Of a stretch of DNA of 64,000 nt, positions 42,001 to 51,000 are shown piece by piece (within the stretch, counting starts at the first letter, position 1; each line of letters starts with the position of its first letter). The position numbers were made by a program. Source of the stretch: an uncultured Gemmatimonadales bacterium (GTDB lineage Bacteria > Gemmatimonadota > Gemmatimonadetes > Gemmatimonadales > Gemmatimonadaceae); contig CAVPQB010000006.1 in the NCBI GenBank assembly GCA_963707505.1, positions 512,001 through 576,000 on the forward strand, given 5' to 3'.

Positions 42001-45000
42001 TGAATGATGGTCGGAAGCATGATGTTGCGCGGTACAGTAGTCATGCGGTGGGAAGCTACGGCTGGCTACTGCTGCGTTCAGTCGGGGTAAGGTGGAAATA
42101 TCGTAAAGGAATCCCCGACCGTCGTCACTTGCGCGATGGATCTGGTGCCGCCGTAAATACGAAAGTCTTGATTATTGCGAATGCAAACAGCACGAGCAAC
42201 AGCGACTGAAGGGCGACAGTCTCGACCGTGGGGAACAATCCGAGCCACGAGATATCGGGTACATGCGGCAACGGTGTCATGGGCAGCACGTTGCCCTCCT
42301 GCAATTCCCGTATTCCCCGGCCCGCGAATACGAACGCCATGTAGTACAACAGCAGGCTGGTTGCCGCGAAGAACATCCGCATCGGAATCTTCACGCCGAA
42401 CCGGTAGAACAGAACGAATACAACAGCCAGCGCAACGGAGCCCGTGACAATTCCCAGCGTGAGTGGCAGCGCCGCGCCGTGCGCCTGACTGAACAGAGCC
42501 TGATAGAAGAGAGCCGTCTCCGCGCCTTCCCGGTATACGGCAAGGAACGCGATCAACATCAACGCTCCGCCACTACCGTGCTCCAGCGCTACCGACACCT
42601 TTTCTCTGATGAACTTCTGCCATTTGTGCGCTTCAACCTTGGAGATAAGCCAGTAGCTGACGGAGAAGAGCACCACGACTGCAACCAGCAGCGATACCGC
42701 TTCGACGATTTCACTGCTCGCTGGAATCGCGGCGAGCGCAGTCTTGAGGATCACCGCAGTTATTGCACTCGCGACGACACCTAGCACGACGCCGATCCAG
42801 ATGGAGCGCAACCTATCGCGGTTTCCCGTCTTGATGAGAAGCGCGACTACCGCACCAACAACGAGTATCGCTTCGAATCCTTCTCTGAGGATTATGATGA
42901 ACGATTGCCAGAACATCGTTACCGCACCTTCGTCCGTTCCATTTACGAGCGCCACCGCGCGCGGCAGAGCGTCTGTGATCGCGTCGCGAGCACGAGTAGC
43001 CGCACGTGTATCACCGCCGCGCACGGCGACTCTGAACTCACCGAAGGAGCGCTCCAGCAATGAAACCAGTGCGGGATCCTTGGCGCGCACGACAGTTTCG
43101 AGTGGCTCGAACGCAAGGTAGGCGTCGAATGCGCCGTCGCTTGCCGAGGTAACGTCTCCGCGCCTTGCCGATGCAAGCGAGCTGTCCAGCAATGCCGCTA
43201 TCGACGACGCGGTGCTGCTGGCGTTGGTTCCCGTGCCGACAGCCTGCGATGGGAGCGACATCGGCTGTCCGCGCAGCTGATAGACATAGTTCAGTACCTC
43301 CCATCGCTGCTGAGGGGTAAGCGATTCTCCGAACGCCGGCATGGCGGTGCCATTGATGCCGACGGACGCCACATCGTACGCAAGAGCCGGAGTCAGATTG
43401 GGAGTTGCAGTCATGCTTCCAATTGCCGGAACAGGGGTCGAGAGAGTCCGCGCCATCGGACCGTCGCCGAGCCCGCGTGCGCCGTGGCACGACGCACAGC
43501 TTTCCGTGAAGACCTTTCGGCCAGCCACGGAATCGAGCGGCATCGACGGTAGCTCCAGCTCGGCTGCATTGCCCAGTGCCGCAAGCATGCGCATCCGGTA
43601 TTGCTCCAGAGCGGCGGGCGGTCGTTTTTGCGCCACGGCACCGATCAGCTCCCCGAGTGCCGACCTGGCGGCGGGCGCGTCATGTCCCTCCAGTCGGCCC
43701 GCGACCTCACGGGCGTTCTCCAGGAATCCGGCGACCTCGGCGTACTCCTCCGCCGAGATCAGCTGGCCTCGCTTATCTACCGCCAGTCCGTACTCGGCGA
43801 CCGCGACCGATACGATGCTCGCCAACCTTCTGGCTGCCGTATCCTGGGATCTCATGGTTGCTGGCGTGAGCCATAGTGAGGCGAGGGTGCACAGACACCC
43901 TATCCGTCGCTTGCAGTTCATATCCGATAAAAACTATCGGATTACAACGGGCCCGCTACTGCGGGCTTTTCTGGCCGCGAAGCCCCGTTCAGCCAGGGGT
44001 AGCTCCGGTGCGTCGCCGGGCACCGTCTATAGTCCGCCAGATATTGTATACAAAACAGTATGCCGCGATGGCTGACAGGACGCCTCCCGTACCGAGCACG
44101 AACGGCGCCGCCGGCACTGCATTTGGTGCGAGGCAAAAGCCAACGACCATCAGTGCCAGCCCAGCATTGGCGAGCCACCATTGCAGCGCCGCAAGGCTGC
44201 GCATGTGCAACGGGTGCCCTGTGAAACGCGGAATTACGTGATACGCAACGCCGTAGATCATCATCGTCACAAAGCCCAGCAGATTCATGTGAACGTGCGC
44301 GGGCCGGTAGATGATGAGCTGCGGATGCACGGCCATGCCGACGCCGAGCGTTACACCGAGCGCGAGCCAGGTGATGCTTGCTTTGAGAAACGCCTTTACG
44401 AACCACTCCATGCTGTTCTTATCGATCCGGTGTTGCGTGATTGGGTGAGTAAATGCATCCGCTACTCATGACGCAACTTATGCGAACAGGCATTTGACGG
44501 GTGTCGGTGTTTCCCTGAAGTAAGTGCGGCGATCTCCTGACAGGGAATTCGACGGGGCTCCATGCACCACTCCCACGCGCTGCCTGCACGGCGCGCGTGG
44601 GAGTGGTGCACCATGATCTCTCCGCCACGGGCCGTGTAGCCGAGCCCGGTGGAATCAATCAGCATACGCGAGCGATCTTCGCGCCATCACTTCCGGTCAA
44701 TCTGCACGCGCCAGATTTCCGGCCCCTGTGCCTTGTACGTCCACTCGAACGTGCCAGGATGTTCCGCGTCGAGCTGGTACCGCAGCGGACGCGGATCGTG
44801 GTCGTTGATCAGAATCATCGACTGACCTTTCTCGAGGCCGTCGAATGTACGAAAGATGGTGGGGTGCTTGTCCCGCGGTGGAATGACGCGAACGTCCAAC
44901 TCGACGGGACCGTTGCCGGACTGTGGTGCGTTTGACTCTGACACGTCCTACTCCTGTGATTGAAATCATTCATGGTTCAAGGCGACGTATGGAATACCTG

Positions 45001-48000: not shown

Positions 48001-51000
48001 CCGCACCGACGGCGATGATGTCACGGACGTTGCTCAACCTGACCCGGTCTGCCCACGGGTCCGGCACTCCGGGCCGTGCCTGTCCGGCGTTCGGAGAATG
48101 CGGAATCGGCTTGCTCGGCGGGTCGGGTTTTACGATCTCGACAGTGACGAGTGTTGCGCCCAGTGCGGAGAGGCGATCGCGCACCGCGACGCTGAGCCGC
48201 TCCGGAATGGACTCATCCGTGGTGCGGAGCGCCAGTTGAACCTTGACCTGGCTGCCGCACACGGATATGTGTTTCACCATCCCGAACGACACGACATCGC
48301 GCGTCAGCCCGGGGTAGTGAACATCCCCGAGTGCGCTGCGTACCCTATCAACGTCGAGCTCGATATCTGGCTCAGCTGTTGCCATGCCAGCACGCTAGCT
48401 TGACTCCATGTGGTGAGGTGTGACGGATGTCTCACGGAGAAGAGTGATGCCAGAGCATGTAGTTACAGCTGGCGCGCGCGCCAGAATCCTGCACGAAACG
48501 CTGGCGACACAGTTTCCAGCGTCTCTATTTCGGTTCGACGAACGCATGGCCGACGGATACTACTCCGACCGCTATTTCGTTCTGACGGCAAAGACCATAT
48601 CGCACGCTGGCCTCGATCCGATTGTCACCATGCAACTGTTTGCAAAACGACAGGGGATCCTGGCCGGCATATACGAAGCACTCCGAATGTTGCAGACTCA
48701 GCTCGCGATCAATCCGCGTACTGGATCTCGTTACGATTTCGACGAGCTCACGATCGATACACTCGTCGATGGCGACGTGGTCCTCCCGTGGGAACCGGTC
48801 ATGCACATCACCGGCCCCTATCTCGCGTTCGCGCACCTCGAAACCGATTACCTCGGCGTCATCGCACGTCGCACGCTTATCGCAACCAACGTGCGACGTG
48901 TCATCGACGCCGCTAACGGGAAGCCGGTCATCTTCATGGGTGCTCGGCACGATGACTGGCGCGTGCAGACCGCGGACGGGTTCGCCGCAAAGGTCGGCGG
49001 GATCGCCAGCGTCTCTACGGATGCGAACGGCGCATGGTGGGGCGGCGGTGGTGTTGGCACGATGCCGCACTCCATGATCGCATCCTTTGGTGGCGACGTT
49101 GTACGCGCGACGCTTCAATTCGCGCGATACTGCCGCGAAGCGGCATTGAATATCGACGTTGTGAGTCTTACGGACTATCACAACGATGTGATCGGTGATT
49201 CACTGGCAGTTGCGCGTGCCATGCGCGATGAATTTGGCGACGCCGCGCTATGGGGTGTGCGGATCGATACGAGTGAGAAGCTTGTCGACAAATCGCTCGA
49301 GGCCCAGGCGATGCGTTTTCCGGAACGGCGCCTCAATGGAGTGTGCGCCGAACTGGTCGTGCTACTGCGATCGGCACTCGACGCCGAAGGGTTTCACTAC
49401 GTACGGATCGGCGTGTCCGGCGGATTCCACGTGCGGAAGATCGAGCGTTTCGAGGCAGAGCATGTTCCGGTGGACTTTTACGGAGTGGGGAGCTCGCTCC
49501 TGGGCCACAATAACGGCGATGCTGACGGGCTCACGAACAACTTCGACTTCACGGCCGATGTCGTTCGGTTGAACGGCAGCGCCGAGAGCAAGGTGGGTAG
49601 GGAAGAGCGCAGCAACGCGAGCTTCATACGGCTGGATCACGAGCTACTGAAGCGTCTCGAAATCAGGGCCGTCGCGCGATGAAGGTCGATTCAGCTTGCA
49701 TGTAGTCACCCCGCGCCGCAGATTGCGCGCGATGATATCCATCGAGGTTGGATAGTGGCAGTCTGTCTGTGGCTCACAGCGCACGGTTCCAGTTGCCTGG
49801 AGGCGGTCGCCGTCATCTTCGGAATCATCAGCGTTTACCTGAGCACGCGCGAGAATATCTGGAGCTGGCCGACTGCTCTCGTCAACGTGGCGCTCTTCTC
49901 CGCGCTCTTCCTGGAGTCCGGTCTGTACTCCGATACCGGATTGCAGGTAGTCTACTTCGTTCTGTCGTTGTACGGATGGTACGAATGGCTGTACGGCGGT
50001 GCTGGTCGTACCGCCATCACGGTAACGCGCACATCGAAGAGGACGTGGATCGTGCTGGGTGGGATCGGCGTCGTGGTATGGGCGTTGCTCGGAACGATCA
50101 CGTCGCGCCTTCCCGGAACCGCTCTGCCGTACGTAGATGCCGCGACAACGACCATAAGCCTGCTGGCTCAATGGATGATGACCCGCAAGCTCATCGAGAA
50201 CTGGCTGATCTGGATTGCCGTCGACGTGGTGTACGTCGGCATGTTCATCTATAAGGGCCTGTATCTCACCGCATTCAATTATGGGATATATCTCGTCCTG
50301 GCAGTGATGGGTTACATCGCATGGAAACGATCGCTCGCGGCGACGGCTTGATCCGCGTGGTTCTGATCGGCTCAGAATCTACTGGCAAGACGGTGCTTGC
50401 CCGGGAGCTGGCCGATCACTACCGCGCTGAGCTGGTACCGGAGTTCGTGCGCGATTTCGCCGTGCGGAAAGTATCTCCGATCGACCTCGCTGATACTGAT
50501 GCAATCGCACGTGGACAGATGGCGCTCGAGGATGAACACGCGACGCGGGCGACGCGACTGCTGATACAGGATACAGATCTGCTGAGTACCGTCGTATACA
50601 GCGGGCACTATTACGGAACATGTCCGGCGTGGATTGCCGCCGCCGCACGCCAGCGCAGGCCGGACCTGTATCTTCTACTCGAGATCGACGTACCGTGGGT
50701 GCCGGATGATGTGCGGGATCGGGAAACACGTCGCGAAGAGATGCAGCAGCTCTTTAGAGACGCAGTCGCGAAATCCGATGTGAAATACGCAGTGATCGAG
50801 GGAACATGGGAGCAACGGTCGCTGCTCGCGCGCGCTGCGATCGACCGGTTGCTCGCGTAGCATTCGGTTACGAGTGCACCACGCGAGCAACCAGCATGGT
50901 CAGATCCCGACTTTCAGCGTGACGAACACATTGCGTGGCGGAAGCACGAAGTAGTACGACACGCCATCGCTCGCGTAGCCACTTCCGTATTTCTTGCTGT

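Follow-up and report, generated by a model that had tools for sequence, protein, structure and literature searches.

The question raised by the gene at 45873..47276 (minus strand) of the window, the 64,000-nucleotide stretch of DNA that was analyzed, is what a membrane protein with the fold of heme-copper oxidase subunit I might do when it lacks the histidines of the oxidase center. The gene encodes 467 amino acids from a GTG start codon, but because most relatives are 439 amino acids long, the true start may be M29. The product is a three-unit (12-helix) protein of the heme-copper-oxidase-homology (HCOH) type.

A three-unit HCOH protein

The preliminary description regarded this protein as cryptic, with no Pfam, NCBIfam, or PDB sequence hit. 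For the 467-amino-acid protein itself, the NCBIfam scan gave zero matches and the Pfam scan gave only a trace of COX1 (16.2 bits, E 0.0048; residues 48-139 aligned with profile positions 313-403 of 436). The lack of hits does not extend to the family, which is recognizable by sequence. Among 85 diverse relatives (24-59% identity), 56 matched Pfam COX1 (E<=0.01), and 7 of 30 relatives scanned singly passed Pfam's own cut-off. A profile search of the PDB with the family profile recovered CcoN chains (E 3.4e-9 to 6.3e-6) and NorB (2.9e-4). One of the 85 members matched NnrS in Pfam (E 4e-4).

The AlphaFold2 model, for which the 85 relatives were the input, has 12 long helices (pLDDT 91.4, pTM 0.91). 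When it was compared with 48,161 chains in VIA-align, the cbb3 oxidase subunit CcoN (3mk7_A) gave Z 36.6 (rmsd 3.2 over 397 residues, 13% identity) and the cNOR subunit NorB (4xyd_A) gave Z 36.1. The remaining oxidases and qNORs scored Z 24.7-31.4, the next unrelated fold scored about 10, and Foldseek was in agreement. These results confirm the earlier claim of a complete subunit-I fold at 13-14% identity.

Helices 2, 6, and 10 carry an internal repeat, with G at +5 in 84, 85, and 78 of the 85 relatives, G at +13 in 84, 76, and 81, and P at +20 in 84, 82, and 83, respectively. In hhalign comparisons the best canonical match of the four-helix units was CcoN unit 3, helices 9-12 (97.6, 93.6, and 92.8% probability), and the family's own three units matched each other with a higher probability, 98.2-98.6%. 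These results demonstrate that the gene encodes a three-unit HCOH protein, a 12-helix membrane protein in which three closely similar units of four helices make up the subunit-I fold.

Two single-unit, 4-helix relatives are encoded on the minus strand of the same window. The gene at 43989..44411, previously called a COX1-like fragment (g03426), is rather a complete single-unit HCOH gene with an HxH motif (COX1 32.7 bits on 344-400; family profile positions 52-143, E 1.6e-15), and a gene of the same kind, with 32% identity (E 3e-14), follows drpB in Thermus. The second, at 31392..31862, matched COX1 (46 bits), NnrS (24.8), DUF2871 (21), and family profile positions 144-259 (E 2.2e-10). It comes after genes for Cupin_2 (31941-32303) and ScdA_N (32300-32578) proteins, is divergent from nosZ, and is of the same conserved type as Ignavibacteriota genes downstream of DUF59.

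Histidines and register of the repeat

Only two histidines, H83 on helix 2 and H214 on helix 6, are invariant in the 85 relatives. Both are 7-10 residues inward of the periplasmic helix ends, which is the depth of canonical heme ligands. H216, previously also listed as invariant, is present in only 56/85, and H242 (55/85), H46 (47/85), and H117 (8/85) are not near-invariant as proposed; conservation of these four residues is confined to subgroups. In agreement with the preliminary description, neither helix 7 nor the canonical places of helix 10 showed a conserved His column in the 85 relatives. The absence of both helix-7 and both helix-10 histidines rules the protein out as a normal oxidase or NOR, as had been concluded. 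The HCOH protein has lost the CuB/FeB histidines and so is neither an oxidase nor an NO reductase. The majority of the conserved residues are in loops and at helix ends on the cytoplasmic side (P103, P236-M-F, R304, D310, K366, P369, and W373).

The ligand histidines of a CcoN and of this genome's COX1 occupy position -2 on helix 2, position 0 on helix 6, and positions -2 and 0 on helix 10. The COX1 helix-6 position was taken as approximately 0 because Pro is at +19, not +20. The HCOH family has His at helix 2 position 0 and at helix 6 positions -2 and 0, with Tyr at helix 10 position -2. These ligand positions support a canonical pattern rotated by one unit (register n+4), in which family helices 2, 6, and 10 would correspond to canonical helices 6, 10, and 2. 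The top-scoring sequence matches are in this register (P0163 residues 21-243 on COX1 167-400, 64.2 bits; family 51-243 on 9g6b_A 204-404). However, unit-by-unit hhalign does not favor n+4, and family unit 3 matched CcoN unit 1 with a probability of 1.1%. In the VIA-align superposition the model is in register with 3mk7_A (33-451 on 5-464), but a symmetric fold cannot tell the registers apart. The preliminary description had proposed that the fold was shifted by one four-helix unit, with helices 2-4 on canonical helices 10-12 (n+8). That sequence match is no evidence of a shift because all three units best match canonical unit 3; the ligand positions do suggest a one-unit rotation, but to n+4.

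H216 and Y347 tend to occur together, with 52 of the 85 relatives having both, 25 having neither, and 8 discordant. In independent contrasts the two residues never changed in opposite directions, a marginal result (median p 0.0625, 8 supported pairs).

A module with DUF2249 and DUF59 proteins

The first gene of the run, at 47273..48385 on the minus strand, encodes an Mrp/ApbC-type P-loop Fe-S carrier (ParA/NUBPL 270 bits; NCBIfam ApbC 258 bits, under the cut-off of 348) with an N-terminal DUF59 domain (FeS_assembly_P, 31.5 bits). Its end has a 4-nt overlap with the 12-helix HCOH gene, at the GTG start of the latter, and the stop of the HCOH gene has a 1-nt overlap with the ATG of a DrpB-like gene (45010..45873, minus strand). 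The DrpB-like protein has two DUF2249 domains (Pfam, 103.9 bits in two stretches) and a DUF1858 domain (26.4 bits, below the cut-off of 32.2). A DrpA-like gene with a single DUF2249 (44687..44944, minus strand; Pfam 104.9 bits) lies beyond it. A fusion of cytochrome c with an iron permease of the FTR1/EfeU type (42125..43921; Pfam FTR1 137.6 bits, Cytochrom_C 44 bits) is encoded on the same strand, 68 nt downstream of the single-unit gene at 43989..44411, and is a putative operon member. The HCOH gene is co-transcribed with genes for cytoplasmic partners, to which it is probably translationally coupled. The HCOH gene is beside small iron-related partner genes, inside a nitrogen-oxide respiration island.

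The association is not particular to this genome. Two pattern scans contributed their best 80 hits each, and one phylum a further 30 loci, to a sample of 190 loci; it is biased, its members are related, and its domain HMMs were self-built rather than Pfam's. At least 12 phylum labels are represented. In 176/190 loci a DUF2249 gene was no more than 2.5 kb away on the same strand, which bears out the previously noted lock to the adjoining DrpA/DrpB-type genes. DUF59, absent from that account, was linked as tightly (176/190 by the same measure), with both domains at 166 loci and either at 186. Natural fusions include HCOH-DUF2249-ScdA_N (P0152) and HCOH-DUF59 (P0224 and P0227), and in the window the DUF59 domain of the module is fused to the Mrp ATPase. 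The conserved module across phyla consists of one or more DUF2249 proteins of the DrpA/DrpB type, the HCOH protein, and a DUF59 protein.

The module is located among denitrification and NO-response genes. For example, the cluster is within nor-nirK islands of rhizobia. The order on R. etli p42f is norECBQD-hemN-[DUF2249, HCOH, DUF2249, DUF59]-nnrS-nirK-nnrR, and the same cluster is present on pSymA of S. meliloti. Neighbors at other loci include qNOR, NosD, multicopper oxidase, and Rrf2 (46/190) and Crp/Fnr (35/190) genes. The drpA-drpB pair of Thermus precedes a single-unit HCOH gene, and DrpB is partly membrane-bound there although it has no transmembrane segment (PMC6282519). A distant 12-helix relative in Haloferax (hhalign 91.5%) was induced under denitrification (log2FC 7.0).

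Proposed function and comparison with known systems

The HCOH protein is most likely the membrane component of a denitrification/NO accessory module, in which it would bind heme. By pseudo-threefold symmetry with canonical enzymes, H83 (helix 2 position 0) and H214 (helix 6 position -2) would be heme-binding positions that face the helix 2/helix 6 pore, left empty in true oxidases, and hold a b-type heme there. This placement is based on the symmetry and on the arrangement of pores in oxidases reportedly described by Iwata et al. in 1995. The co-varying H216/Y347 pair, present in about 60% of members, including the window protein, may provide another site, in the adjacent pore. The predicted heme might bind NO (or O2, or take up electrons), and its state could be read by, or handed to, DUF2249 and DUF59 proteins docked at the cytoplasmic face. 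The outcome would be a tie between nitrogen-oxide status and the regulation or maintenance of iron centers, in line with the DrpA/DrpB phenotypes in Thermus. Taken as a whole, from HCOH identity through module to mechanism, this explanation is tentative, at slightly under an even chance.

Thermus DrpA is reported to be periplasmic, whereas DUF2249 is at the cytoplasmic C-terminus in the fusions.

It is possible, but rather unlikely, that the module is an assembly or trafficking factor in which the HCOH protein, DUF59/Mrp proteins (Fe-S carriers), and TusA-like DUF2249 proteins supply cofactors (iron, Fe-S, or heme) or repair them. Its target would be denitrification enzymes under NO stress, making it a membrane-bound counterpart of RIC/YtfE rather than a sensor. 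The DUF59 linkage, including Mrp fusions in 16/30 Gemmatimonadota loci and the HCOH-DUF59 fusions, is consistent with this, as are the RIC parts ScdA_N, DUF1858, and hemerythrin (39/190 loci) in partner genes, the adjoining hemN in R. etli, and the cytochrome c-FTR1 gene downstream in the window. In addition, PMC11218638, which cites the HCO-homology work of Pei et al. 2014 for the DUF2249 link, describes an Mrp-DUF2249 fusion in the Haloferax nar operon. However, Thermus drpA/drpB mutants have a regulatory phenotype, with nar and dnr up and nitrate dependence lost (PMC6282519). Neither a transport motif nor a channel was identified, and the present results do not tell repair from sensing.

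A new type of enzyme (an NO reductase, NO dioxygenase-like enzyme, or oxidase), with a heme and distal H83 (plus H117 in this clade) replacing the heme-CuB/FeB center, is improbable. In the n+4 register H214 would take the place of the high-spin heme's proximal ligand and H83 that of the helix-6 CuB ligand, and in the window protein helix 3, which is equivalent to helix 7, has H117 at its start. The qNOR N-terminal domain was not found in this 83% complete genome, which has a NirK-like gene and nosZ. However, few members have H117, the 190 loci share no conserved adjoining electron-donor subunit (NorC, CcoO, or CoxB type), the rhizobial cluster coexists with full norCBQD, and this genome has four full-length COX1 genes, of unassigned types.

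There is likewise only a slim chance that the protein is a cofactor-free scaffold (pseudo-enzyme) merely anchoring the soluble DUF2249 and DUF59 proteins at the membrane. The concentration of conserved residues on the cytoplasmic side would suit an anchor, as would the partly membrane-bound state of Thermus DrpB, which has no transmembrane segment. Two histidines invariant in 85/85 at heme-ligand depth are hard to explain for a pure anchor.

The earlier reading of a sequence-invisible, wholly new protein kind with an n+8 shift is very improbable: the window protein's only COX1 match and the best stretch of 14/25 matching members (30 scanned) are in n+8, but 6/25 are in register and 5/25, including the strongest, in n+4, the n+8 match is a repeat effect because every unit best matches canonical unit 3, the helix-10 Tyr (position -2) and the HxH helix fail to line up under n+8, and HCO-homology families with two conserved His and a denitrification context were reportedly published in 2014. 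The COX1 matches, PDB profile search, and unit-by-unit hhalign contradict this reading in part.

That 2014 study, by Pei, Li, Kinch, and Grishin (Protein Sci 23:1220), reportedly identified HCO homology proteins by sequence analysis, with 12-helix three-unit and 4-helix single-unit families. The window family fits these proteins in kind and is not a new kind. Shared features are subunit I homology by sensitive search, 12 helices in three units, a resemblance that is greatest to canonical helices 9-12, two invariant His, the denitrification/NO context, DUF2249 neighbors, and the presence of single-unit relatives within one genome.

NnrS (PF05940) is a membrane protein that contains heme and copper and belongs to the NnrR regulon. 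It also has 12 helices and a place in a denitrification regulon, and its gene adjoins the HCOH cluster in R. etli p42f. However, it is a separate family (2.5% hhalign probability between the HCOH family and R. etli NnrS; 1/85 members match). CcoN (3mk7) and cNOR NorB (4xyd, 3o0r) share the whole fold and the motif around the helix-10 HxH. Besides the low identity, the HCOH family differs in having no helix-7 HH or helix-10 His, an HxH on helix 6 instead, and no conserved partner cytochrome c subunit. RIC/YtfE/ScdA proteins are repair-of-iron-center proteins with ScdA_N and a hemerythrin-like di-iron domain. The HCOH partner genes likewise carry ScdA_N/DUF1858 and hemerythrin domains and occur in NO-response contexts, but at HCOH loci such domains are joined with DUF2249 and linked to a membrane protein, and the operon has no RIC-type gene as such. 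The drp locus of Thermus thermophilus (Chahlafi et al. 2018, PMC6282519) lacks a 12-helix HCOH and DUF59, having a protoglobin gene in their place, and differs in gene order. However, it shares with the window the three-domain makeup of DrpB (32.9% identity, 96% coverage, E 9e-28), a DrpA-like single-DUF2249 gene, and a 4-helix HCOH gene.

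Predicted fold and conserved histidines

The only Pfam match of the 467-aa membrane protein encoded at 45873-47276 on the minus strand was COX1 (16.2 bits, E 0.0048, residues 48 to 139 on 313 to 403 of 436), and there was no match in NCBIfam. An AlphaFold2 model of the protein, for which 85 diverse relatives (24 to 59% identity) were aligned, had twelve long helices, with a pLDDT of 91.4 and a pTM of 0.91. In structural searches the top match of this model was cbb3 CcoN (3mk7_A; Z 36.6, rmsd 3.2, 397 residues, 13% identity), followed by cNOR NorB (4xyd_A; Z 36.1) and the remaining oxidases and qNORs (Z 24.7 to 31.4). 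The first unrelated folds, MAPEG proteins and styrene oxide isomerase, appeared at Z of about 10 and covered helices 1 to 4 only. Foldseek concurred with an oxidase/NOR fold. Thus, the modeled structure bears out the preliminary description of a complete 12-helix subunit-I fold.

The family had also been described as cryptic to sequence methods, which it is not. COX1 was matched at E<=0.01 by 56 of the 85 members (best, 1.3e-17). When 30 members were scanned singly, 25 matched COX1, 7 of them above the Pfam cutoff. The family profile reached CcoN chains in the PDB (E 3.4e-9 to 6.3e-6) as well as NorB (2.9e-4). The family is large. Of the candidates that were scored, 1015 proteins fell within E<=1e-5, and at E<=1e-3 the count was 1986 representatives of 50% clusters; its gene was present in 48 of 201 sampled Gemmatimonadota genomes, the source genome included. 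In the ESM Atlas the family was represented by "hypothetical protein" clusters and one COX1-labeled cluster, with nothing else. A search for longer homologues, of 819 to 2335 aa, returned none at E<=1e-10, which is weak evidence against such forms, and shorter fusions were present among the representatives.

Just two histidines were invariant in the 85 relatives: H83 on helix 2 and H214 on helix 6. H216 was present in 56/85, H242 in 55/85, H46 in 47/85, and H117 in 8/85, and none of the relatives provided a conserved histidine on helix 7 or at helix-10 positions -2 and 0. The earlier histidine pattern therefore stands for helix 7 and the canonical helix-10 sites, but not for H216, which had been counted as invariant, or for H46, H117, and H242, which had been counted as near-invariant. 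Catalytic subunit I has six ligand histidines (one each on helices 2 and 6 and two each on helices 7 and 10), and this set is incomplete in the family. As judged from the alignment, the protein has lost the ligands of the binuclear center.

In 2014, Pei et al. reportedly defined heme-copper-oxidase homology (HCOH) proteins, comprising four-helix, single-unit families most like helices 9 to 12 and 12-helix, three-unit families, NnrS among them. Most of these families are said to have two conserved histidines and a denitrification or NO context. The family studied here has profile-level homology to subunit I (CcoN, E 3.4e-9 to 1.7e-8; NorB, 2.9e-4; COX1, 56/85), three four-helix units that are homologous to one another and closest to canonical helices 9 to 12 (hhalign), and the expected number of about two conserved histidines (H83 and H214, 85/85). 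Because every testable feature agrees, we assign the protein, as a probable member, to the HCOH proteins, the comparison being with the reported general features of this kind. On this comparison, the suggestion of a wholly new kind of protein does not hold; the kind of protein and its link to DUF2249 were already reported in 2014. Heme-copper oxidase relatives are tied to DUF2249 in the passage of a later article that cites the 2014 work (PMC11218638). A 2024 PNAS paper on NOR families did not cover the HCOH family. Literature searches found no paper combining the HCOH name with heme-copper, none joining DUF59, denitrification, and nitric oxide, and none by Rhizobium etli locus tags or by tentative Sinorhizobium meliloti SMa tags. 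Identity of the protein as NnrS itself (PF05940) was considered and rejected: it had no profile match at E<=1, 1 of the 85 members matched, and hhalign gave 2.5%.

Internal repeat and layout of the candidate ligands

The HCOH family and 12 Gemmatimonadota CcoN sequences were cut into four-helix units and compared with hhalign. CcoN unit 3 was the top match of HCOH units 1, 2, and 3 alike (97.6%, 93.6%, and 92.8%), and matches to CcoN units 1 and 2 did not exceed 76%. The HCOH units matched each other at 98.2 to 98.6% (E 1e-14 to 1e-16) and the CcoN units each other at 28 to 68%. Since all three units match CcoN unit 3 best, the alignment of helices 2 to 4 with canonical helices 10 to 12, previously read as a shift of the fold, is an effect of the repeat. 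Among the 25 members that matched COX1, the match was turned by two four-helix units (n+8) in 14, turned by one unit (n+4) in 5, and in register in 6. The top-scoring sequence matches were in the n+4 register (COX1 against family representatives P0163, 64.2 bits, and P0154, 52.5 bits; PDB chain 9g6b_A, 37.9 bits).

The motif H-x3-L-G-W-x6-G-x2-Y-[QK]-L-x-P is repeated on helices 2, 6, and 10. On these helices, respectively, the glycine at +5 was present in 84, 85, and 78 of the 85 members, the glycine at +13 in 84, 76, and 81, and the proline at +20 in 84, 82, and 83. Ligand positions were counted along this register, with the COX1 of the source genome and a CcoN as the canonical reference. 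Canonical histidines are at -2 on helix 2, at 0 on helix 6 (in COX1 the proline is at +19, so about 0), and at -2 and 0 on helix 10. The HCOH family has H83 at 0 on helix 2, H214 at -2 and H216 at 0 on helix 6, and Y347 at -2 on helix 10 (56/85). Read along the motif register, the layout reproduces the canonical pattern after a turn of one unit, with family helices 2, 6, and 10 apparently corresponding to canonical helices 6, 10, and 2. In this rotated pattern both helix-7 histidines are absent and a tyrosine replaces one histidine.

H216 and Y347 were both present in 52 members and both absent in 25, with 8 discordant. A FastTree phylogeny of the family showed 12 changes of H216 and 14 of Y347. 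Of the 8 independent contrasts with support, approximately 4.6 had Y347 moving with H216 and 0 had it moving against H216 (median p 0.0625); the covariation is suggestive and not significant. In the oxidase structures of Iwata et al. from 1995, the helix pairs 2/6, 6/10, and 10/2 reportedly line three pores, of which the first is free of cofactors. On this layout, H83 and H214 would be directed toward the normally empty 2/6 pore, and H216 and Y347 toward the next one.

Linkage to DUF2249 and DUF59 genes across phyla

The gene lies in a run of tightly packed minus-strand genes from 48385 to 42125. Upstream is a gene for a P-loop protein of the Mrp/ApbC type that carries DUF59 (FeS_assembly_P) at its N terminus (47273-48385; ParA, 270 bits; FeS_assembly_P, 31.5 bits). 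Both the NUBPL/ParA P-loop and DUF59 are present in this protein, which scored 258 bits against the NCBIfam ApbC equivalog (below the cutoff of 348). The Mrp stop overlaps the GTG start of the HCOH gene by 4 nt, and the true start may be M29, because most relatives are 439 aa long. The HCOH stop overlaps by 1 nt the ATG of a DrpB-like gene (45010-45873, minus strand) with DUF1858 and two DUF2249 domains in Pfam, DUF1858 being below its cutoff. There follow, on the same strand, genes for a DrpA-like protein with one DUF2249 (44687-44944), for which there was no match to PDB sequences at E<=1, and for a single-unit HCOH of four helices and 140 aa that shows a COX1 trace (43989-44411). Directly downstream is a gene that joins a cytochrome c domain to an iron permease of the FTR1/EfeU type (42125-43921). 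No FNR/Dnr-type box (TTGA-N6-TCAA) was found in the window (0 matches versus 0.49 expected), and a promoter and terminator scan of 40400-49000 returned fewer sites than shuffled sequence and thus carried no information. An NAD-salvage-like run (48420-50860, plus strand), encoding a phosphoribosyltransferase-like protein (QRPTase_N/C), the NMN transporter PnuC, and an AAA_28 kinase-like protein, diverges from the Mrp gene; the two start codons are only about 34 bp apart.

Pattern scans of one-genome-per-species contigs were made with two sub-alignments, since the alignment of all 85 relatives gave no conserved stretch, and confirmed 584 and 581 HCOH loci. These were in Bacteroidota, Ignavibacteriota, Campylobacterota, Verrucomicrobiota, Nitrospirota, Bacillota, Myxococcota, Chloroflexota, Planctomycetota, Methylomirabilota, and other phyla. 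Neighbors encoded in the same direction and no more than 2.5 kb away were called in 190 loci with HMMs grown from the Pfam-verified proteins of the window. Gemmatimonadota contributed 30 of these loci, with flanks of 1.5 kb, and other phyla contributed 160 (the best 80 of each scan, with flanks of up to 6 kb). Pfam scans of cluster representatives bore out the domain labels. DUF2249 and DUF59 were each found in 176/190 loci, both together in 166/190, and at least one of them in 186/190. The remaining four were two Gemmatimonadota loci with short flanks and two contigs of Bacillota. Counted by phylum label, DUF2249 was present in 80/81 loci of Bacteroidota, 27/30 of Gemmatimonadota, 27/29 of Ignavibacteriota/Chlorobiota, 16/18 of Campylobacterota, 10/11 of Verrucomicrobiota, 5/5 of Myxococcota, 3/3 of Nitrospirota, 2/2 each of Methylomirabilota and Chloroflexota, 1/5 of Bacillota, and 3/4 of the labels with a single locus. 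A separate phmmer pass found DUF2249-type neighbors in 26 of the 28 informative other Gemmatimonadota loci. These results confirm the linkage to DrpA/DrpB-type DUF2249 genes that had been noted. The preliminary observation is thus upheld, and its interpretation is upheld in part, for the fold and the DUF2249 link, and not for the cryptic nature, the shift, or the novelty of the protein.

Outside the Gemmatimonadota, DUF59 is a stand-alone gene of approximately 105 aa immediately after the HCOH gene; in 16/30 Gemmatimonadota loci it is the Mrp N terminus. Other recurrent neighbors in the 190 loci were Rrf2 regulators (46), hemerythrin (39), Crp/Fnr (35), single-unit HCOH (26), and cupin (25), and further ones were qNOR, NosD, ABC (NosF/Y-like), multicopper oxidase, cytochrome c, and ferredoxin. 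Natural fusions joined HCOH to DUF2249 and ScdA_N (representative P0152) or to DUF59 (P0224 and P0227); P0042, a close relative with the order HCOH-DUF1858-DUF2249, could be a merged gene call. Because the C terminus of the 12-helix subunit-I fold is cytoplasmic, the fused DUF2249 and DUF59 partners are probably at the cytoplasmic face.

In Paenibacillus enshidis the HCOH gene (L172:7920-8957) lies beside DUF59 and cupin genes and a divergent Crp/Fnr gene, then a multicopper-oxidase (NirK-like) gene. There was no DUF2249 gene within 2.5 kb, which makes this locus a variant of the module. In P. medicaginis (L176) the HCOH gene has the same Crp/Fnr, DUF59, and cupin neighbors.

The window is a nitrogen-oxide island. 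A second single-unit HCOH gene (31392-31862, minus strand) forms a small operon with Cupin_2 (31941-32303) and ScdA_N (32300-32578) genes, divergent from nosZ. Its product is highly similar, conserved C-terminal tail included, to single-unit proteins that follow DUF59 in Ignavibacteriota. The clade-II (Sec-type) nosZ is split into two plus-strand open reading frames, 32749-33597 and 33618-35075, which match TIGR04246 at positions 1 to 249 (386.8 bits) and 249 to 578 (383.1 bits), in different frames and with one TGA inside. The split reflects either a frameshift in the gene or an error of assembly. NirK-like genes at 57391-58278 (minus strand) and, outside the window, at contig positions 733293-734084 scored about 195 bits against TIGR02376 (cutoff 296). 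The second is approximately 3.4 kb from the only DUF2249 gene of the genome beyond the HCOH operon (contig positions 737455-737661), so that each of the four DUF2249 domains in the genome lies either in that operon or beside this NirK-like gene. The source genome, which is 83% complete, yielded no N-terminal domain of qNOR.

Possible roles and related systems

We favor, with somewhat less than even confidence, a role in which the HCOH protein binds heme. H83 and H214 would hold the heme, together with H216 and Y347 in the members that have them, and NO, O2, or electrons would bind at this site. The protein would communicate with the DUF2249 and DUF59 proteins on the cytoplasmic face, and the output may be signaling, as drp phenotypes suggest, or upkeep of iron centers. 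A complex prediction for residues 29 to 467 with the DrpB-like protein and heme scored 0.08 versus a mark of 0.32, which speaks neither for nor against the complex. For DrpB, a regulatory role in nitrate respiration is known from experiment only in Thermus (PMC6282519).

The closest rival is cofactor trafficking or repair, which we regard as unlikely. Genes for an ApbC-type P-loop protein and an iron permease lie in the same run. A novel catalytic role is improbable: no electron-entry partner subunit (CoxB, CcoO, or NorC) was found in the window operon, and none of these was among the recurrent neighbors of the 190 loci, FixO and cytochrome c occurring in a minority. A bare scaffold is equally improbable with two histidines invariant in the family.

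A fuller form of the heme-binding proposal is more doubtful. The protein would be a "rotated" oxidase relative with a predicted heme, and no CuB, in the 2/6 pore, which is not known to be occupied in any oxidase or NOR, and in the next pore. The 12-helix form may be its own triplication of the four-helix unit. With DUF2249 and DUF59, it would be the missing membrane component of DrpA/DrpB-type nitrogen-oxide signaling or iron-center maintenance, from Thermus to rhizobia and haloarchaea. The oxidase fold and predicted unusual heme site offer an experimental handle on the unexplained DrpA/DrpB nitrate/NO signaling, and likewise on the role of DUF2249 and DUF59 beside nir, nor, and nos, the genes that control the emission of N2O and NO. 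In evolutionary terms, the family shows clearly how a pseudo-symmetric fold can be rebuilt from four-helix units that are almost identical. Those units, DUF59 in the module, the four-helix gene behind Thermus drpB, and the rotated ligands with a covarying histidine and tyrosine are fresh leads.

The conserved, uncharacterized module is found in the denitrification islands of R. etli p42f and S. meliloti pSymA and in the Thermus nitrate-respiration element, and its membrane gene is annotated "hypothetical protein" in the database records examined. The order on p42f of R. etli CFN42 is norECBQD, hemN, DUF2249, HCOH, DUF2249, DUF59, nnrS, and nirK, with a Crp/Fnr regulator and nnrU beyond nirK. 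The HCOH product (450 aa) is a family member (hhalign 99.9%, E 1.8e-35), and the DUF59 gene is annotated "metal-sulfur cluster assembly factor." S. meliloti 1021 has the same DUF2249, HCOH, DUF2249, and DUF59 set on pSymA. A more distant 12-helix relative, the 408-aa "hypothetical protein" encoded by E6P09_RS17400 on Haloferax mediterranei pHME322 (L218:5491-6717; hhalign 91.5%, E 8.6e-7), is without an equivalent of H83. Its gene adjoins a DUF2249 gene between nos and nar, has a CGAACACGTTCG motif upstream, and, according to published data, was induced under denitrifying conditions (log2FC 7.0).

The DrpB-like protein of the window shares with Thermus thermophilus DrpB a domain makeup of DUF1858 and two DUF2249 (tblastn, 32.9% identity, 96% coverage, E 9e-28). 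In T. thermophilus, the next gene after drpA and drpB encodes a 144-aa "hypothetical protein" (L195:9795-10229, on plasmid pHB5018b of strain HB5018), its start overlapping the drpB stop, and a protoglobin gene comes after it. The 144-aa protein is a single-unit, four-helix HCOH (COX1, E 1.4e-5; hhalign 94.4% to unit 2 of the HCOH family) and is 32% identical (E 3e-14) to the 140-aa protein of the window. The Thermus study described drpAB as bicistronic and found DrpB partly in the membrane fraction despite its lack of a transmembrane segment (PMC6282519). A membrane partner of the HCOH type could explain this localization of DrpB in Thermus.
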